From an uncultured virus (IMG/VR IMGVR_UViG_3300025012_000071) (taxonomy: Duplodnaviria; Heunggongvirae; Uroviricota; Caudoviricetes): a stretch of 20,000 bases of DNA. This document shows, piece after piece, positions 3,142 to 15,739 of the stretch. The DNA is taken from IMG/VR virus record IMGVR_UViG_3300025012_000071; one strand, written 5' to 3'. The translations under genes were made by a program, and so were the position numbers. The notes beneath the pieces are model-generated. The model was not told the DNA's origin. It made no database searches and was given only the letters and a program-made list of their open reading frames with translations. The number at the start of each line of letters is the position of its first letter. The stretch's first letter is position 1.

Positions 3142-3369
3142 CCCTACTAAGGGTTGTCGAAATCGGACATTGAGACTAAATCAGTCAACAGATAACTACC
3201 CTCAGTCGAGAGGATGTCCGTAGAAGTTCCGGAGATACACCGGGCGCCATATGTGCTAGACGTAAAATTGAGCATGGTTAGGGTTATCTATAGCGGTTCG
3301 TTGCCGTAGGATGTCAATACGGTCCTGCAATCCCACTTAATCTGATAAATCAGGTTATGGTGGCGCAGG
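3142..3369 (+). ncRNA. candidate structured RNA of unknown class upstream of the PAPS-reductase-like gene
   Basis: Pairings CGGACAT 3164-3170/ATGTCCG 3214-3220, AGATAAC 3190-3196/GTTATCT 3283-3289, CCGTA/TACGG 3304-3322 and a long hairpin 3324-3369; no long ORF. Confidence 0.5.
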
Positions 3370-9417: not shown

Positions 9418-9854
9418 GTAAAATACCTCTCGCTGATCCGTTCAAACAAGAAAAACTAATAGTCGCTAACTATCTAATCAACTATCACGACATAAAACAT
9501 CAGTACGAGCAGGACCGGGAGAGAATACTCGAAAACTCTCCCCCACCTCCCGACGGTATGCCAAGAGGTAGCACGACAGGCAATAGGACGGCATCGGCAG
9601 GGATCGCATTGGCATCGTTAGCGGTAACGGAAACGTGGTTGCAGGTAGTTAAGGAATTGGTAGCAGGTTTGAATGATGATGATAAACTACTGTTGGGATT
9701 AAAGCGGACGCATAAGGATTATGTGCGCGGAAGTTCGGTGAAAAAACTAATTGTCATGGAACTTGGGGTAAGTATGAGAACGGTTTATAATCGCTGGCAG
9801 GTGATATTGGAGCAGGGACGGACGTTGGCGGTTAGAAGGGGATTATTGCGGTGA
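9414..9854 (+). CDS. ArpU/RinA-like late transcriptional activator
   Basis: Last gene of the replication/metabolism operon; C-terminal HTH ELGVSMRTVYNR. Confidence 0.7.
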   Translation: MSKIPLADPFKQEKLIVANYLINYHDIKHQYEQDRERILENSPPPPDGMPRGSTTGNRTASAGIALASLAVTETWLQVVKELVAGLNDDDKLLLGLKRTHKDYVRGSSVKKLIVMELGVSMRTVYNRWQVILEQGRTLAVRRGLLR

Positions 9855-9880
9855 GCAGGGGAGAGATCCCCTGCTTTGCT
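9854..9880. terminator. hairpin terminator between convergent operons
   Basis: AGCAGGGGA-GAGA-TCCCCTGCT 9-bp stem with GNRA loop. Confidence 0.75.
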
Positions 9881-9881
9881 G

Positions 9882-10262
9882 TTATTGCGAAAAAGGTAAA
9901 TAATTCGTAAGAAAATCAACTAATTTCTTACCTTCGGGAGTAAGTATTTTACCTCTCCACAAACATCTATTACACCTACCGCGGTCATTCTTGTCTGGTG
10001 AATTATCAGGATCGCCATTGCAGACGGGGCAAACCTCTTCCATAACAATACCTTGGAAAGAGTAAAATTTAGGGCGATTAAGCAACTTAAATATCTCCAC
10101 ATGATGTTTCTTAATAGCGTCAACTGCCTGCTCTACTGATATTTCCATGATATGTCTACCGAGCGGTAAACCTACTTCAAACTTAATGATGTCCTCAATG
10201 TCAGGACTTTTAATAATTCCTGACAAGATATCTCCAACTAATTTATTAATCTTATCTTGCAT
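9882..10262 (-). CDS. protein with anti-TRAP-like C-terminal zinc-finger domain
   Basis: EEVCPVCNG...CNRCLWRGKILTPEGKKLVDFL resembles B. subtilis anti-TRAP. Confidence 0.6.
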   Translation of the reverse strand: MQDKINKLVGDILSGIIKSPDIEDIIKFEVGLPLGRHIMEISVEQAVDAIKKHHVEIFKLLNRPKFYSFQGIVMEEVCPVCNGDPDNSPDKNDRGRCNRCLWRGKILTPEGKKLVDFLTNYLPFSQ

Positions 10263-10311
10263 AATTATTCCTCCCCTGGGGTTTAAGGTTCACCCCGAAC
10301 CGTTTTAATAA

Positions 10312-10644
10312 CTAAGGTATCATAAACCTTTTGACTCCTGCTATCAACCCCTTACCGTCCCTAACTGCCGAATCAGGGCCAGTGTCGGGGCAAATAACGT
10401 CTGACCTGGAACCGCCCAAAACCTGAGCGACAAGTAGGGCAACTATATAGATTGTTCCTTCCACCTGTTCGGGAAGGTTTTCAATGCTCCCGTAAATGGT
10501 TTTGTGTACGGGCAGACCATTGACGGTATGAGAAAATTCTGATCTTGAAGCAACACGAGCAGCCGTTCCGGCATTAGGGAAAACATACTCTTCGCCGCCG
10601 TAACACAACTTTACGTCGTGTGGGGTAAGGTTGATAATGTTCAT
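10312..10644 (-). CDS. conserved hypothetical phage protein (NLTPH family)
   Basis: MNIINLTPH...LPE...YIV...RSDVICPDTGP..VRD; AAGGAGG SD. Confidence 0.8.
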   Translation of the reverse strand: MNIINLTPHDVKLCYGGEEYVFPNAGTAARVASRSEFSHTVNGLPVHKTIYGSIENLPEQVEGTIYIVALLVAQVLGGSRSDVICPDTGPDSAVRDGKGLIAGVKRFMIP

Positions 10645-10692
10645 TTTTCCTCCTTCATGGTCGGTATTTTTAGCCCCGACCGGCTATTTATT

Positions 10693-10857
10693 TTAGTCTA
10701 CGTAAACTTTAAACATATTTAGGTTGTGGTGATATGAAACTCCGGCAACTTTAACCGCAGTGTCTACGGTATGAATAAACATACCGATTTGCGGCACAAA
10801 ACATAGATTAAGCGCAAATATAAGACGTTTACCTGTGTAAAATTCGCATGTATACAT
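10693..10857 (-). CDS. small hypothetical protein (54 aa, not in the ORF track)
   Basis: MYTCEFYTGKRL...FKVYVD with AAGGGGG SD. Confidence 0.6.
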   Translation of the reverse strand: MYTCEFYTGKRLIFALNLCFVPQIGMFIHTVDTAVKVAGVSYHHNLNMFKVYVD

Positions 10858-10919
10858 CTAAAAATCCCCCTTGTTTTAATCCTTCGGCATCCCCTGACAA
10901 GGCAGGAGATAACGAAAGA

Positions 10920-11222
10920 CTAACGCTGTCCTTGAAGTTCAAATAGTTTTTCAATAACCTCCTCTCCGATGACTTCTTTAACGTCCCTGTCTTTCAGGGA
11001 TCTAATGGTTATCCCCGACGTAGACAAGGCGCAGAACGAAAATTTCAACCCCATTTCTTTTAACTTCGTAATTTCTTCGGGTGCAGAGTTTACTGATACC
11101 TCCTTCACCCAAAATCTTGCTTTGCCTACCTTACTGTAAGGCATATGACTATAATCCATTGCGAGCAATTTACCGCGTATACTAAGTAGTGTTATGCCCT
11201 CTATCCTTATTGCAGTTTTCAT
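10920..11222 (-). CDS. hypothetical protein
   Basis: GGAGG SD; overlaps the upstream stop. Confidence 0.65.
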   Translation of the reverse strand: MKTAIRIEGITLLSIRGKLLAMDYSHMPYSKVGKARFWVKEVSVNSAPEEITKLKEMGLKFSFCALSTSGITIRSLKDRDVKEVIGEEVIEKLFELQGQR

Positions 11223-11398
11223 TTTTCTTCCTCCCCTTGCAATACCTCTTTAACAGTGTTGCAGACTCTAAAACACTGTGTTTTAAGTGAGCAGGTAAAG
11301 CAGCATATTACGCCAAAAGTTATTTCACACTGGAATGGATGTGAAATATTGCACTCACGATCATTGACAAGATGCTTACATTCCGTTATTCTTTTCAT
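11219..11398 (-). CDS. Cys-rich hypothetical protein
   Basis: Start re-assigned to ATG 11398 (GGGAGG SD); multiple Cys. Confidence 0.65.
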   Translation of the reverse strand: MKRITECKHLVNDRECNISHPFQCEITFGVICCFTCSLKTQCFRVCNTVKEVLQGEEEK

Positions 11399-11447
11399 CT
11401 TTATTCCTCCCTCTGTGGTTTTCGCGGTTGACCACAAACCAGATTTT

Positions 11448-11915
11448 TTATAGTAGTTCGCAATCTCCAATATAAATCCACTCCAGGATTTGCGCAAAAA
11501 ACTCTATTTTTTCCTGAACACAAGGGTAACTGCTTTCTCTAACGTCCCAACTATAATATGGTGCGCGGAACTCTCTGACTGGGTTTTTCTCTAAAACTCG
11601 ATCTGCTTTGATCTTGTAGACGCTCGGTTTATTTGCTCCACAACCTACACTGGTTTCTGCTGCGCTGTAACTATCTTTATAGACGAATCCAGGCAACTTA
11701 GACTTAACCTGCTCATGGAGGTAGTTTTCCACTAACTCCAGATCCTCCTGGGTTGGATTTAAGAAACAGAACGCGAACGGAAAATTACAGCAACTTCCTT
11801 CCTCAAAAACCCTGAGTGACTCTATTTCCTTAATCTCGGCAGGCATTACCCACTTATCAAATGCCTTTACACGGTACGGGAAAAAATTCTTTCTGGACAT
11901 CTGGATAGTTTTCAT
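11448..11915 (-). CDS. hypothetical protein
   Basis: 155 aa, GGGAGG SD. Confidence 0.75.
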   Translation of the reverse strand: MKTIQMSRKNFFPYRVKAFDKWVMPAEIKEIESLRVFEEGSCCNFPFAFCFLNPTQEDLELVENYLHEQVKSKLPGFVYKDSYSAAETSVGCGANKPSVYKIKADRVLEKNPVREFRAPYYSWDVRESSYPCVQEKIEFFAQILEWIYIGDCELL

Positions 11916-11984
11916 AGTTTCAATTCCTCCCTCAATTTAATTTCTCCCGTCCTGCCCACATGCGACGTGAGCAGTTACAAGAAA

Positions 11985-12209
11985 CTAAACTCCGCAGTTC
12001 GGCATGTTGCAAATGCGGGTATTTGAGGTAACGACCTCGGACTGGTTGAGACTAACAACTAAGCTACCGGCAATGTCGTGTACCTCTCTAATTTCAAGGG
12101 TACAGTTTTCATCATCGCCTTTGTGAGAGGCGATCATTTCCTCGGCAGTTTTGCCAAGGAATAAAGTTTTGTGACCAAACGGCCCTGTTAGAATTGCTAC
12201 ACTAATCAT
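11985..12209 (-). CDS. hypothetical protein
   Basis: GAGGAGGTG SD. Confidence 0.65.
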   Translation of the reverse strand: MISVAILTGPFGHKTLFLGKTAEEMIASHKGDDENCTLEIREVHDIAGSLVVSLNQSEVVTSNTRICNMPNCGV

Positions 12210-12402
12210 TATTTTTCACCTCCTCGTCTAAATGCCCTTTCTTCCAAGGGCAAAGTTCCGGGCAACAACCGCCCAACCAACCGCGAAATTCTGGCTGTGA
12301 GCAAAAACCTGGGCAGTCGGTTGACATAGCGCAAACACAAGACGGTACAGTTTGAGCAGTTACTCCCATACTAACTAGAGTGCGACATTCTGGTGGTTTC
12401 AC
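12202..12402 (-). CDS. Cys-rich hypothetical protein
   Basis: GTG start with GGGGGTG SD. Confidence 0.55.
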   Translation of the reverse strand: MKPPECRTLVSMGVTAQTVPSCVCAMSTDCPGFCSQPEFRGWLGGCCPELCPWKKGHLDEEVKNND

Positions 12403-12404
12403 GG

Positions 12405-12485
12405 TTATTTCACCCCCTCACACTGCCCGTTGCGGTGACATTGCGCCTCGTGCGGCATGTAACCGCAGGTTATTTTGTATTGCAT
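12405..12485 (-). CDS. 26-aa microprotein MQYKITCGYMPHEAQCHRNGQCEGVK
   Basis: Strong AAGGAGG SD; fills the gap. Confidence 0.5.
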   Translation of the reverse strand: MQYKITCGYMPHEAQCHRNGQCEGVK

Positions 12486-12502
12486 TTTAGTCCCTCCTTT
12501 TG

Positions 12503-12721
12503 TTAATCTGTCGGTGATTCTGGTTTGAAACATATGCATTTAACCATACTGCAGAATTCACAAGAGATGTATATGTAGCACGGTCTTGTGCCACATGTTT
12601 CAAATCCAGCATGTTTACTTTTGTAGTGAATACATCTCTTGCAACATTTCCCAGTGTATGACATGACGTTTACCTTTTCTAGTTTATGTTTCAGTTTTTC
12701 CCCTGATGGCAGATGTAACAT
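12503..12721 (-). CDS. Cys-rich hypothetical protein
   Basis: AAGGAGGT SD; several CxxC motifs. Confidence 0.65.
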   Translation of the reverse strand: MLHLPSGEKLKHKLEKVNVMSYTGKCCKRCIHYKSKHAGFETCGTRPCYIYISCEFCSMVKCICFKPESPTD

Positions 12722-12791
12722 TATACTACCTCCTTAGTTTTTAATCTCCTACCCAACGTCCGTTAGACGCTCGGCAGGGGATTAAACCCTG

Positions 12792-13118
12792 CTAGTCAAC
12801 AATATCGGACTCCCTAAACTGCCAGCGTTCACCGCAGTTCGGGCAAACGGTTTTGTGAAGATGCTCCCCGGTTTGCATATATTCGCGCTCGTTGCCATCA
12901 ATCGTGCTGTCAAAATGTAGTTCTGCACCACAATCACAAATCTTATTTAAGTCTATATTCATCTTTTTTTCCTCCTTCGCCGGTTCTCCCGGCATAAATT
13001 TTCTAACAACTACCTCACTAATTCCCTTCCCTTCCCTCTTTGCCTGCTCCTTCAGTTTTCGGGCAAGCGGCTTGGGGAAGGTTATGCTGATGCGTATTTT
13101 GTCTTTAGGTATAGTCAT
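12792..13118 (-). CDS. ribbon-helix-helix (CopG/Arc-like) regulator fused to a zinc ribbon
   Basis: RISITFPKPLARKLKEQAKREGKGISEVV; C-terminal CDCG...CPNCG; start ATG 13118 (AGGAGG); internal in-frame SD and ATG at 12962. Confidence 0.75.
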   Translation of the reverse strand: MTIPKDKIRISITFPKPLARKLKEQAKREGKGISEVVVRKFMPGEPAKEEKKMNIDLNKICDCGAELHFDSTIDGNEREYMQTGEHLHKTVCPNCGERWQFRESDIVD

Positions 13119-13134
13119 GTTGCCCTCCTGCTTA

Positions 13135-13175
13135 GGTGATGCACTTATTATATAGCTTGGTGAATCACCTGTCAA
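13135..13175 (-). promoter_or_regulatory. consensus sigmaA promoter with palindromic operator
   Basis: TTGACA-17-TATAAT; GGTGATTCACC palindrome in the spacer (13159-13169) and a partial copy at 13135-13144. Confidence 0.9.
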
Positions 13176-13191
13176 GCAAAAAAAATAAATG

Positions 13192-13401
13192 TTAGTCTAC
13201 TATGTTTACGCGGTACAACCATTCCAACCAGAATTCATTGCGATCTCTTAGTCCCAACGTCCAACCATTTTGACCGCTGGATAAATCTTCGACATACATA
13301 AAACTGTTATCCGAATTTAAAAGTTTGTCTACTAACTTTCTTCTCGCTTCCCTCTCGGCGTCCGCATATTTCTTGATGAACTCGTCATATGTAAATCCCA
13401 T
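13192..13401 (-). CDS. hypothetical protein
   Basis: Likely start ATG 13401 (GGGAGG SD after a hairpin). Confidence 0.6.
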   Translation of the reverse strand: MGFTYDEFIKKYADAEREARRKLVDKLLNSDNSFMYVEDLSSGQNGWTLGLRDRNEFWLEWLYRVNIVD

Positions 13402-13511
13402 AATATCATCCTCCCTCTCAATTTCCCTATCGCCACCCCTCTCTAAGGGGGCAGGGTAAGGAAACTTAGCGGTTAAACTCCCGTAAATTCTAAGATAAAC
13501 TAACTTAGTCA

Positions 13512-13646
13512 TCATCCCACCACCTCCGCCCATTCTGCCTTATTCCATAAGACAGTATATATGCAAGCACTTAGAGGGTTAACCGATAGCACGGAAATGA
13601 CCCACGAATAATCCTTACAATAATACCTTACCCTGTATTTTTTCAT
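13512..13646 (-). CDS. 44-aa protein, paralog of the repeats in the upstream ORF
   Basis: MKKYRVRY...NPLSA...WNKAEWAEVVG; GGAGGTG SD. Confidence 0.6.
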   Translation of the reverse strand: MKKYRVRYYCKDYSWVISVLSVNPLSACIYTVLWNKAEWAEVVG

Positions 13647-14050
13647 TATCCGATCACCTCCACCCTCTCCGCTTTTGGCCAATTCCAAACAGCGTTGGCG
13701 CAAGCATCTTGCCGACTGCTGGCCAAAATTTCGTCGTCGTGAACAAATGCAGGACTTCCCCAATTTGCAGGTAAATAGACCCTAACCGGATACCAGTCAA
13801 CCACCTCGGCCCACACTAGAACCATTTCGGGATCCTTGTAGCGGTCAACTTTGTGGATAATCGCATCCAGGGGACTGGTTCCCCAAACTACCTCGGTACT
13901 GGTGCCCTTTGGGATAACCTGACCGGCGCACATAATTTCCCTGAAATGCAGTCTGACACGGTATTTGTTTAACTCAGGTGCTTTTCTACCTTCCGGCGTT
14001 TTGCTCCCCTGTGTGGGGCTGTGGTGCATGTTTTCGGCTGTTGCTAGCAT
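13646..14050 (-). CDS. hypothetical protein with two internal repeats
   Basis: GGGAGG SD before ATG 14050; KYRVR...WAEVV and YPVRV...AERVEVIG. Confidence 0.7.
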   Translation of the reverse strand: MLATAENMHHSPTQGSKTPEGRKAPELNKYRVRLHFREIMCAGQVIPKGTSTEVVWGTSPLDAIIHKVDRYKDPEMVLVWAEVVDWYPVRVYLPANWGSPAFVHDDEILASSRQDACANAVWNWPKAERVEVIG

Positions 14051-14064
14051 TGTGCTTCCTCCCC

Positions 14065-14418
14065 TCAATAGTGTTTCATACTACCTACCCCGGAAGGTAG
14101 GCACCACGAAAGACTATATGTCCCAAATCGGCAGGAACGAGCGGTTGACCATTTCGCGCCTTTTGTATATCCAGTCTCAACTTCGTTTGGTATGGTTTCT
14201 GCCGGTGCGCTCATGCCCTCGCCCTGGATACTACAGTCCCAGTGGTCGGGGTAAATATAAATGCTATATACACTGTTTGCGCCCGACGTGAGGTTTATAA
14301 CCAGATCCCCTCCCTCGTTGCGCTGGGCAACTGGTTCGCCCTCGGAAGTGCGGATTTTTTTGATGTTTTGGCAAAAGTTCTGAGCGTCAATCTTGTTCTG
14401 GATTTTTTGAAATTGCAT
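14065..14418 (-). CDS. hypothetical protein
   Basis: GAGGAGG SD before ATG 14418. Confidence 0.65.
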   Translation of the reverse strand: MQFQKIQNKIDAQNFCQNIKKIRTSEGEPVAQRNEGGDLVINLTSGANSVYSIYIYPDHWDCSIQGEGMSAPAETIPNEVETGYTKGAKWSTARSCRFGTYSLSWCLPSGVGSMKHY

Positions 14419-14460
14419 AGTAAACCCTCCTCGCAAAAGGATTTGGGTAAAACTGCGACT

Positions 14461-14691
14461 TTAGGTAGTCGCGGACCTGGTGAAAATGTTGGCATCACCT
14501 CGGAAGTAGCAGTATTCACCCCCTCGCATTTCACGAATTACTGCATCCTCGCTGGGGTAAGTCCAGGTATTGCCGTTTTTGAACTCAAACTTTTGGCGGT
14601 AAGCAATTAACGCTTGCTTTGCCGGCAAGGTGTAAACTGCCAGTTCGGAAATGTTGCCTTGCTCGTCTAGTAGCATTATTGTTGTTGTCAT
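14461..14691 (-). CDS. hypothetical protein
   Basis: AAAGGAGG SD. Confidence 0.7.
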   Translation of the reverse strand: MTTTIMLLDEQGNISELAVYTLPAKQALIAYRQKFEFKNGNTWTYPSEDAVIREMRGGEYCYFRGDANIFTRSATT

Positions 14692-14753
14692 TGATATTCC
14701 TCCTTTGCCTCAACAAAACCCCTCTCTAAAGGAGTTATGCGTGTGCGGTGCGC

Positions 14754-14816
14754 TTTGTCTGTCATCCTCAGAGCAGGTAGACAAATTCCTGCTGACCGGG
14801 CGAACCCGGTTTCGAC
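14754..14816 (-). ncRNA. type II hammerhead ribozyme with loop I/3'-tail pseudoknot
   Basis: GUC-GAA-ACCGGG-UUCG-CCCGGU-C^AGCAGG-AAUUUGUCUA-CCUGCU-CUGAGGA-U-GAC-AGACAAA; predicted cut between 14794 and 14793. Confidence 0.88.
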
Positions 14817-15034
14817 TAACCTTCCAGGTAGATTTCCATGTCTGCGCCTGTGTAGCATTGTTCCGTCTTACTGTACCAGTTCCCTTCTTCCTGCACATAC
14901 ATGGTGTGGTCGTGCAGGTTTAAGATTGCATCCTCTGGAATTTCGACTTCAACTGTGGTTTTAGCAGGTATTACAGTTTCGCCTAAGTCGGTAACTACCG
15001 TGATGTCGATGTTCTCGCCGTTGTGAATTTTCAT
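14816..15034 (-). CDS. acidic hypothetical protein flanked by two ribozymes
   Basis: GAGGGGG SD; 72 aa. Confidence 0.7.
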   Translation of the reverse strand: MKIHNGENIDITVVTDLGETVIPAKTTVEVEIPEDAILNLHDHTMYVQEEGNWYSKTEQCYTGADMEIYLEG

Positions 15035-15066
15035 GTGTGTATCCCCCTCGTATTTAGTTTTAACTT

Positions 15067-15127
15067 GCCACCTCCCCCGAAGGGGAACGCTTGCGGCTTA
15101 AGGCTGTTTAGACTCTCCGCAAAGAGT
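15067..15127 (-). ncRNA. pistol self-cleaving ribozyme
   Basis: ACUCU-UUGCGG-AGAGU-CUAAACA-GCC-UUAAG-CCGCAA-GCGU-UCCCC-UUCG-GGGGA-GG^U-GGC; P1, pseudoknot, P2, P3 and linkers match the pistol consensus; predicted cut between 15071 and 15070. Confidence 0.93.
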
Positions 15128-15352
15128 TTATTCAACAAAATCAATCTTATAAGTAGATGGTTCGCCGTTTTCCCAAAAGTAGGGGTTTTTTCTTATCTCT
15201 AGGTCGAATCCCATTATCCTGAGTGCCTGCTTTATCCCGGATAGTTCGTGGTCAATTCTGGTTACTCCGGTTTCGCCTTTGCAGTGCTTATTATTTATGT
15301 CCAACAGGGATAGTTTGTTGTTAACCAGTTCCCTTACGTTAGTTATGCTCAT
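15128..15352 (-). CDS. hypothetical protein, first gene of the leftward operon
   Basis: GAGGGG SD downstream of a promoter. Confidence 0.7.
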   Translation of the reverse strand: MSITNVRELVNNKLSLLDINNKHCKGETGVTRIDHELSGIKQALRIMGFDLEIRKNPYFWENGEPSTYKIDFVE

Positions 15353-15401
15353 TCAGTGCATCCCCTCTCGTTGTTATTTTGTTGCTGTGTTCCATGTGCT
15401 T

Positions 15402-15471
15402 ATACTATCATGTGGATACCCATACCGTCTAGCCCGATTTAACGTCATATTCAGCTATTTATGGATACCCA
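15402..15471 (-). promoter_or_regulatory. promoter with TGGATACCCA operator boxes
   Basis: TAGACG-18-(TGn)TAGTAT; boxes at 15413-15422 and 15462-15471. Confidence 0.6.
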
Positions 15472-15485
15472 GCTTATCCAGCCTA

Positions 15486-15686
15486 CTAGATACTAGCCGT
15501 ATCTGCCTTTTTCATAGTTTTTTGATATTCCGCAATTTCTTTTTTGATAGCAGTTCTGGCTATTTCCGATGCTGGAACCCGCGTATTTGTTGATATTTCG
15601 GCTAGTTTTGCTTTATCTTCTATAGACAGGCGCAAATTAAAACTTTCCCAGCCTTCTCTATATTTTTCTTTCCGCTTTGCTGACAT
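15486..15686 (-). CDS. ribbon-helix-helix regulator
   Basis: SFNLRLSIEDKAKLAEIS.....SEIARTAI; start ATG 15686 (GGAGGTG SD). Confidence 0.75.
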   Translation of the reverse strand: MSAKRKEKYREGWESFNLRLSIEDKAKLAEISTNTRVPASEIARTAIKKEIAEYQKTMKKADTASI

Positions 15687-15705: not shown

Positions 15706-15739
15706 AGTATAACATACTGGATATCCATATGGCAACCCA
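15706..15739 (-). promoter_or_regulatory. promoter of the RHH gene with palindromic operator
   Basis: TTGCCA-18-(TGn)TATACT; TGGATATCCA at 15718-15727 and TGGCAACCCA at 15730-15739. Confidence 0.7.

Follow-up and report, generated by a model that had tools for sequence, protein, structure and literature searches.

Hammerhead ribozymes flank non-constant genes of prophages, and Perreault et al. (2011, PMC3088659) proposed that long phage transcripts are thereby divided into mRNAs of one gene each; because of that proposal, ribozyme punctuation is not in itself a new idea. The early precursor RNA of phage T7 carries five RNase III signals, the single-cut 3′ hairpins of which are described as stability determinants, and an ideal RNase III substrate is put at 22 bp (PMC3867540), while the targets of phage SP82 are described as receiving a single cut by Bs-RNase III on the downstream side (PMC1935012). 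In the hyperplastic regions of T4-type phages, ORFan genes are bordered by intergenic promoter early stem-loops (PeSLs), at which related phages differ by insertions, deletions and replacements (Arbiol et al. 2010, PMC2839356). The purpose of self-cleaving ribozymes in bacteria and phages was called open in a 2019 review (PMC6765202). Here, we analysed a 20,000-nt stretch (the window) of an uncultured tailed phage, IMG/VR record IMGVR_UViG_3300025012_000071, in which an array of small minus-strand genes is punctuated by a pistol ribozyme, a type II hammerhead, long hairpins and candidate pseudoknots. We propose, with moderate confidence, that these elements are interchangeable RNA punctuation that cuts or insulates cistrons, and that the hairpins are probably sites for a host RNase III-type enzyme. 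In synthetic insulators (RiboJ, Csy4 sites, T7 R1.1), ribozymes and nuclease-cut hairpins are interchangeable means of making cistrons independent; the array of the window would be a natural counterpart of these engineered parts.

As in the prophages of Perreault et al., several self-cleaving ribozymes lie between small phage genes of variable identity, and the type II hammerhead has a pseudoknot between loop I and the 3′ tail. Unlike in those prophages, the slot is filled at most junctions here by hairpins or pseudoknots that are not ribozymes; moreover, one homologous junction has either a pistol or a type I hammerhead fold, depending on the sequence, and a hammerhead replaces a two-hairpin module at another. 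The long hairpins resemble the T7 and SP82 signals in being intercistronic, about two helical turns long (22, 20, 19 and 17 pairs in the window) and part of a message made by host polymerase. In T7 and SP82, cutting separates cistrons and can leave stabilising 3′ hairpins. Internal loops restrict those signals to one cut, on the downstream side; the window hairpins are almost perfect duplexes mixed with ribozymes, and their cutting is something that we infer.

T4-type PeSL cassettes were reportedly also treated by Comeau et al. in 2014, and the conserved junctions described here resemble PeSLs as probable sites of cassette exchange between related phages. PeSLs combine a promoter with a terminator and work in transcription, whereas the hairpin junctions of the window are free of promoters and U-runs, lead into an A-run and a Shine-Dalgarno (SD) sequence, and belong to a set that includes ribozymes; they would therefore act on RNA after transcription. 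Unlike integron attC sites, which are single-stranded DNA hairpins at cassette ends with an integron integrase nearby, they are accompanied by no integrase in the window or in the complete relative G006, and they need sense-strand G.U pairs in order to fold.

A pistol and a hammerhead ribozyme in an array of small genes

The array occupies 15830-9882 of the minus strand and comprises 19 small open reading frames (ORFs) of 26-155 amino acids (aa) with strong SD sequences, here numbered G1 to G19 in the direction of transcription. Genes either abut or are spaced by 42-133 nt. There are 11 spaced junctions, ten of which contain a folded element, and the eleventh (13119-13194) is a promoter/operator. 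A sequence-only reading of this DNA had placed structured RNAs at a minimum of nine spaced junctions, and the count bears this out. To its list of one pistol, one hammerhead, four long hairpins and three pseudoknots we added an 11-bp hairpin remnant at 14713-14740 and, at 14419-14472, a small hairpin with a truncated long hairpin. The elements around the two ribozymes are as follows (relatives are given by working handles).

15066-15127, minus strand: pistol ribozyme, Rfam RF02679, 46.5 bits over the complete model (1-68), gathering score 34.5
15035-15065, minus strand: conserved leader AAACUAAAUACGAGGGGGAU with the SD before G3, directly after the pistol
14753-14817, minus strand: type II hammerhead, Rfam RF02276, 36.3 bits against a gathering score of 37, model 1-66, overlapping the G3 stop codon
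14713-14740, minus strand: hairpin remnant of 11 bp within the hammerhead junction, intact with 17 bp in L011, L018 and L020

The pistol begins one base past the G2 stop codon, and the same match was found in G001, a 37.7-kb viral record with 99.4% identity to the window across the module. The UUGCGG of its P1 loop is complementary to CCGCAA in the internal loop, and this pseudoknot is paired in the minimum free energy (MFE) fold. The core of the hammerhead is intact (CUGAGGA / GAAA / GUC, with C17), and its stems III and I are ACCGGG/CCCGGU and AGCAGG/CCUGCU, with stem II open. Loop I (UUUGUCU) can form a 7-bp pseudoknot with the 3′ tail (AGACAAA); pairing of loop I with the sequence downstream of stem II over at least 4 bp is how type II hammerheads are defined (Perreault et al. 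2011, PMC3088659). By standard numbering, cutting is predicted after C14794. Type II hammerheads with different stem sequences occupy the homologous junction in relatives, at 41.4 (L004), 37.4 (G006), 36.5 (L013) and 35.7 (G003) bits. Judged by these features, both ribozymes of the window are real, as the sequence-only reading had it.

The hammerhead of the window was detected only in a 131-nt Rfam scan and was filtered out in scans of 6.2 kb and 1.8 kb, the latter containing the identical copy of G001. Because the same 36-bit hammerhead appears or vanishes with the amount of sequence scanned, Rfam negatives are weak.

Ribozymes and hairpins replace one another at homologous junctions

The leader AAACUAAAUACGAGGGGGAU is present in 7 viral and 11 related metagenome stretches; the metagenome scan returned 18 stretches, of which 11 are related junctions, representing 7 distinct sequences, and the other 7 look like chance. 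In the window and in L020 this leader is preceded by a pistol (50.5 bits in L020), and in 7 distinct sequences, drawn from the other relatives and the metagenome scan, it is preceded by a type I hammerhead fold. Unconstrained MFE folding yielded the three-way junction in 7/7 of these sequences. Eight in-register pairs are 100% paired, three of them with double changes, and 0/500 shuffles matched this. An Rfam scan with Hammerhead_1 gave no candidates across the records of five relatives.

A second replacement was found upstream of gene family g4. L011 and L018 have here a small hairpin followed by an intact 17-bp hairpin, and in the same slot of the window the type II hammerhead takes the place of the small hairpin and of the 5′ arm of the long hairpin, leaving the leftover hairpin of 11 bp. 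Replacement of ribozymes and hairpins by each other at homologous junctions is the comparative signature that would be expected of interchangeable processing or insulating signals. What is documented here in addition to the earlier work is a swap of ribozyme class and a swap of a ribozyme for a hairpin module at homologous junctions, together with the covarying, uncatalogued hairpin family described below.

In L004, the type II hammerhead is separated from the long hairpin that follows it by a conserved GAA-rich element of ~130 nt (3156-3290); this element also occurs in L011, L018 and L020 and partly in L019, and is absent from the window. It has closing complementarity of CCCC...GGGG and CUGCA...UGCAG and no Rfam match.

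The intergenic hairpins are RNA structures of the sense strand

All four long hairpins named by the sequence-only reading are present, and two further hairpin elements lie at the junction between G4 and G5.

13420-13466, minus strand: long hairpin of 17 predicted pairs; the SD (AUUGAGAGGGAGGA) and start codon of G8 come next
12736-12790, minus strand: long hairpin of 22 bp with two 1x1 mismatches, z -5.4, followed by AAAAACUAAGGAGG
11938-11987, minus strand: long hairpin of 20 bp, z -4.5, starting at the UAG stop codon of G13
10877-10922, minus strand: long hairpin of 19 bp, z -3.95, starting at the UAG stop codon of G16
14455-14472, minus strand: small hairpin across the G4 stop codon (element 14419-14472, z -3.2)
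14419-14454, minus strand: truncated member of the UUUUAC long-hairpin family, the G5 SD in its apical part; intact homologues in L018, L020 and L011

The hairpin at 13420-13466 has a z-score of only -1.5, computed on the whole 115-nt junction. Across the window hairpins only 1x1 mismatches or small bulges are predicted; they are near-perfect duplexes without conserved unpaired cores. The hairpin at 10877-10922 has copies of 87-96% identity in six relatives (L004, L013, L019, L020, L021 and one module represented by three copies, L015/L017/L018), and by gene calling it stands between genes unrelated to those of the window in L004, L018, L019 and L020. The hairpin at 13420-13466 has a homologue in L020 with one compensatory pair, and no homologue of 11938-11987 was found. 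The window hairpin families are conserved mostly in sequence, stem changes keeping wobble pairs and substitutions falling in loops.

We then considered 64 junctions of ≤140 nt from eight modules, some of them homologous copies. Gap sizes are bimodal in all modules, genes being abutting or ~60-95 nt apart. A hairpin of ≥14 bp is present in 41/64 junctions, with stems of 15-26 bp. The sense strand is more stable than its reverse complement in 38 of the 41 (mean -20.9 against -13.7 kcal/mol), and 144/778 pairs in these hairpins are G.U. The UUUUAC family, plentiful in the relatives, has the base AGUUUUACC...GGUAAAACU followed by an A-run and an SD. Among its 18 distinct sequences 90.3% of cells are paired and both sides change in 10/18 pairs; 0/500 shuffles reach its covariation score, a slide of one column cuts pairing to 56-60%, and RNAalifold predicts the same stem. 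A covariance model of this family (R1) found 25 sense copies at ≥37 bits in the relatives, redundant contigs included, sense copies scoring 53-69 bits and antisense 13-32 bits. Taken together, these results indicate that the hairpins form in RNA, on the sense strand. The earlier expectation of structural conservation in related phages held when it was checked: the elements are kept, and in this sister family they covary (0/500 shuffles).

Membership of the window hairpins themselves in the UUUUAC family was rejected, since R1 gave non-significant scores; the layout is common to both and the family is not. The four long hairpins rank 1st, 4th, 5th and 6th among 17 weak R1 matches in the window, the best being 13420-13466 (12.9 bits, E 0.19). 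Two of them match through the UAGUUU...AAAUU stem base, A-run and SD only, and two are also poorly aligned along the stem. A multi-copy contig (L073/L074) was likewise rejected as the same hairpin class, being an AU-rich repeat with only 9 terminal pairs.

The position of these hairpins raises an alternative in which cutting is confined to the two ribozymes, and hairpins and pseudoknots stay uncut, as passive exonuclease barriers or as translation insulators or couplers joining a stop codon to the next SD. Of the 41 hairpins, 12 have a stem that opens on the stop codon, and the distance from the 3′ stem base to the next start codon is typically 14-22 nt, which places that base immediately before the SD and draws the two spacer ends close to each other. 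In addition, no asymmetric internal loop of the T7 and SP82 kind is predicted in these hairpins, and no phage-encoded nuclease was found among 71 ORFs of G006. However, the slot is also used by ribozymes, whose only known activity is cutting and which take the place of hairpins at homologous junctions. The hairpin beside the hammerhead of the window is moreover down to 11 bp, a decay that would be expected of two elements with one and the same job. We regard passive elements as an unlikely explanation, though one to be taken seriously.

Just past the small-gene module, G006 encodes a phage protein with a ProQ C-terminal-like domain (L081:6323-6850, minus strand; Pfam E 8e-14). ProQ-type proteins bind structured RNA, and this protein may be relevant to the junction hairpins.

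Conserved junctions join unrelated genes in mosaic relatives

Scans of a viral collection with two proteins and two junction strings yielded ~10 further contigs, representing six distinct modules plus L006, which has only G14 in common with the window. BLAST matches of the relatives to the window are mainly short islands at the junction elements. By SD-based gene calling, 53/75 long junctions fall into shared families (16 families) and 47/112 genes have a relative, a comparison that is only indicative since DNA and protein criteria differ and junction family J1 is a single-linkage merger. Junction family J3 occurs in four contigs, flanked by unrelated genes. G17 is present in the window and missing in L004, where the hairpin abuts the next pseudoknot, which amounts to the insertion or deletion of a single-gene cassette.

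Such mosaicism would also be produced if the junctions were mainly recombination linkers at the DNA level, like T4 PeSLs and integron attC sites, with RNA folding incidental. The same junction families stand between unrelated genes in varied order (J3, and the hairpin at 10876 in six relatives), the indel of G17 falls exactly between two junction elements, and precedents are described in PeSL-mediated shuffling (PMC2839356) and in attC-like motifs at consecutive intergenic regions (PMC5737381). Against this stand the strand-specific, G.U-rich folding, the distal stems that covary with pairing kept, and the fixed register to stop codon and SD. Moreover, apart from RuvC-like resolvases no integrase or recombinase was seen in the window or G006, and the hairpin junctions have neither promoter nor U-run, unlike PeSLs. 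As the sole function this is improbable in our judgement; as a second role of the junctions, recombination is compatible with RNA punctuation.

Candidate pseudoknots at three further junctions

Three junctions that the sequence-only reading had assigned to H-type pseudoknots contain the following candidates, in which a first stem (S1) of 5 bp encloses a loop of 5-7 nt that pairs (S2) with 5-6 nt located 4-6 nt downstream.

11414-11441, minus strand: candidate H-type pseudoknot, S1 UGGUU/AACCG, loop UGUGGU with ACCACA
10659-10686, minus strand: candidate H-type pseudoknot, S1 UAGCC/GGCUA, loop GGUCGG with CCGACC
10278-10301, minus strand: candidate H-type pseudoknot, S1 GGUUC/GAACC, loop GGGGU with ACCCC

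The sequence permits these structures, and further support for them is weak. Motifs of this geometry occur in 4/11 window junctions against 128/1260 (10.2%) dinucleotide-shuffled junctions, a modest enrichment of ~3.5-fold, and the MFE z-scores of the three junctions are unremarkable (-0.87, -1.55 and +1.33). Comparative support is thin: 10659-10686 has one compensatory change from U-A to C-G in S2, in L004 and L019; 10278-10301 has one compensatory change in S1 (L013/L019), with S1 broken in L018 and S2 almost invariant; and 11414-11441 has no homologue. A 275-nt Rfam scan of the four pseudoknot junctions, with E up to 10, gave no relevant match, and its filters may lose weak ones. As known riboswitch-like RNAs of Rfam the pseudoknots were set aside, no model having matched.

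The earlier suggestion that some unclassified elements (here this would mean the A-linker pseudoknots or the hairpins with a UAGUUU base) are new self-cleaving or nuclease-blocking RNA classes fits their lack of any Rfam match and their place in ribozyme slots near known ribozymes, the kind of context described as having led to the pistol, hatchet and twister-sister (PMC4604425). On the other hand, the hairpins are near-perfect duplexes in which no unpaired core is conserved and the conserved bases lie in the paired stem base, and the pseudoknots are tiny, with one compensatory change each and S1 broken in one homologue. The suggestion did not fare well under these observations, and we give it very little credence. 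Scarcely better are the prospects of a broader idea, a portable punctuation alphabet (pistol, type I and II hammerheads, two-turn hairpins and A-linker pseudoknots) tied to neither flanking gene and including at least one uncatalogued self-cleaving, nuclease-directing or exonuclease-blocking class; the candidates for such a class would be the pseudoknots, the UAGUUU-base hairpins and the ~130-nt post-hammerhead element of the relatives.

On the plus strand, the reverse-complemented S1 hairpins at 10287-10301 and 10671-10686 are followed by T-runs and were flagged as terminator-like; 8/12 terminator-like sites in the region are antisense to the module. The S1 hairpins of the pseudoknots at 10278 and 10659 could accordingly be weak intrinsic terminators for plus-strand read-through from the convergent array, and a weak Rfam match aligns 10629-10702 of the plus strand to a terminator-bearing sRNA. 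Yet the stems have 5 bp only, with 3 G-C pairs, the T-runs follow from A-rich sense sequence after stop codons, and the downstream complementary segment with its compensatory change would be left unexplained, which makes antisense termination hardly probable.

The array contains more than one promoter or promoter-like site

The sequence-only reading took the array for a single early transcript, cut into separate mRNAs. Its partitioning part agrees with our results, the elements being RNA-level, conserved, interchangeable and set in a fixed slot (stop codon, element, A-run, SD). Its single transcript does not, because a perfect internal sigma-70 promoter at 13175-13147 splits the array.

15706-15735, minus strand: promoter-like site upstream of G1, TTGCCA-18-TATACT with TG before the -10, 10/12 matches
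15353-15485, minus strand: junction J4 between G1 and G2, direct repeats GGGUAUCCA and a leader common to relatives
13147-13175, minus strand: internal sigma-70 promoter TTGACA-17-TATAAT, 12/12 consensus match, preceded by a T-run

The internal promoter lies just upstream of G9, a ribbon-helix-helix (RHH) gene; its -10 is bracketed by an inverted repeat (13134-13170), and it is kept in L004, L013 and L018. J4 is probably the promoter region for G2 onward, to judge from the equivalents in L011 and L004, where TTGACA-17-TATACT stands ahead of the same leader. Neither of the two best promoter-like sites of the minus strand (12/12 and 10/12) falls at a hairpin junction; there are two weaker sites besides. 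Both RHH genes (G1 and G9) adjoin promoter regions with repeats, an arrangement that looks like repressor control of two transcription units.

Gene content of the module and the phage

The genes of the array are as follows.

15486-15686, minus strand: G1, 66 aa, RHH-like regulator (Pfam RHH_3, E 0.0028, below cut-off; PHROG repressor families)
15128-15352, minus strand: G2, 74 aa, no family
14816-15034, minus strand: G3, 72 aa, family g6, common to L013
14461-14691, minus strand: G4, 76 aa, family g4
14065-14418, minus strand: G5; G5, G6 and G7 abut or overlap
13646-14050, minus strand: G6
13512-13646, minus strand: G7, with a 110-nt gap (13402-13511) to G8 that contains hairpin 13420-13466
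13192-13401, minus strand: G8
12792-13118, minus strand: G9, RHH-like N-terminus (Pfam RHH_1, E 0.0037) with in-frame read-through into a Cys-rich ORF
12503-12721, minus strand: G10; G10 to G13 are tightly packed
12405-12485, minus strand: G11, 26 aa
12202-12402, minus strand: G12, packed with G11 and G13
11985-12209, minus strand: G13, ending at a UAG stop codon
11448-11915, minus strand: G14, 155 aa, no family
11219-11398, minus strand: G15, overlapping G16
10920-11222, minus strand: G16, ending at a UAG stop codon
10693-10857, minus strand: G17, 54 aa, missing from L004
10312-10644, minus strand: G18, 110 aa, phrog_30542 (function unknown)
9882-10262, minus strand: G19, 126 aa, Cys-rich C-terminus, Anti-TRAP-like below cut-off
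9854-9875, no strand assigned: GC-rich hairpin where the two arrays converge, resembling a plus-strand terminator

The Cys-rich part of G9 has its own SD and an ATG at 12962. G9 is a single 108-aa frame in the window, whereas L004 has an RHH gene and a separate downstream gene with an ATGA overlap; one extra A in the A-run before the internal ATG fuses the frames in the window.

An early, possibly host-takeover or anti-defence role had been suggested for these genes, and the searches lent it no support: the 19 ORFs gave four sub-threshold Pfam matches only (two RHH, DUF5433 and Anti-TRAP-like) and two PHROG matches, none of them informative. A blastn search of the phage GenBank collection with the module gave no match. 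To the left of the array, the plus strand encodes a DNA methylase, a 3′-phosphoadenosine-5′-phosphosulfate (PAPS)-reductase-like protein, a thymidylate synthase and a RuvC-like resolvase, and to its right lie the small and large terminase subunits. We read the region as an accessory-gene region of an uncultivated tailed phage, the host of which is probably a spore-forming Firmicute; G006 points to such a host with a Spo0A_C-like protein, an SLH-amidase endolysin and YopX. A pattern scan of genome contigs found no host, its 42 stretches being spread across many phyla as chance predicts. The large terminase of G006 (L082:4820-7540, plus strand) contains Hint and LAGLIDADG domains and hence an intein.

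Discussion

Given that ribozymes and hairpins occupy one slot, we propose that the module is made of small cassettes (leader, strong SD, ORF) joined by interchangeable structured RNAs that would act on the message. Transcription would start from at least two host-type promoters, each adjoining an RHH gene. The pistol would cut itself ~36 nt ahead of G3, at the position generally given for pistol ribozymes. Cutting of the hammerhead after C14794 would leave an upstream RNA ending in the stem III hairpin and a downstream RNA starting with the stem I hairpin. At the other spaced junctions the slot is filled by two-turn hairpins, which start on or close to the stop codon and give way on the 3′ side to an A-run and SD. 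A host enzyme of the RNase III type, specific for double strands, would cut these hairpins, or they would at least insulate or protect the cistrons on either side. In both cases the expression of a gene would not depend on whatever neighbour recombination had brought, and the conserved junctions would also provide homology for cassette exchange.

Several observations weigh against this proposal. On the ribozyme side, the hammerhead of the window falls 0.7 bit short of the Rfam cut-off and has a 2-nt insertion between the core (A9) and stem II; the type I hammerheads were called by manual reading and folding, the Rfam type I model gave no match on the L011 copy scanned alone, the canonical core CUGAnGA is present in 5/7 with a single core substitution in the other two (U4C, A9G), and L095 and L100, which have canonical cores, carry a U.U mispair adjoining the core. 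On the hairpin side, R1 had no significant match in the window, the four hairpins scoring 12.9, 9.6, 9.3 and 8.2 bits (E 0.19-2.6). Double compensatory pairs in the window hairpin families number only 2/19, 0/23 and 1/17, and part of the conservation of these hairpins could be owed to recent recombination instead of structural selection. PMC1935012 attributes to T7 work the finding that near-perfect stems tend to be cut on both strands. With hairpins as nearly perfect as these, both-strand cutting would remove a protective 3′ hairpin instead of leaving it. No RNase III, RtcB or RNA ligase was found in 71/89 called ORFs of G006, the 18 others being short ORFs or overlap duplicates, and any nuclease must therefore be that of the host. 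Finally, whereas the elements, their conservation, strand specificity and equivalence of slot are observed, cleavage, the nuclease and an effect on expression are inferred.

The locus and its relatives form a natural substitution series, in which a pistol stands against a type I fold, a type II hammerhead against a two-hairpin module, and hairpins occupy the slot elsewhere. This series points to one shared job, separating or insulating cistrons, that is testable by swaps in a Firmicute reporter operon. It also suggests a reason why such elements accompany hypervariable phage genes, in that a cassette with its own RNA boundary can be shuffled without disturbing the expression of its neighbours. 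If the hairpins are RNase III sites, the array would correspond, in a Firmicute phage, to the early region of T7, and its ribozymes would offer another way of cutting that needs no host enzyme.

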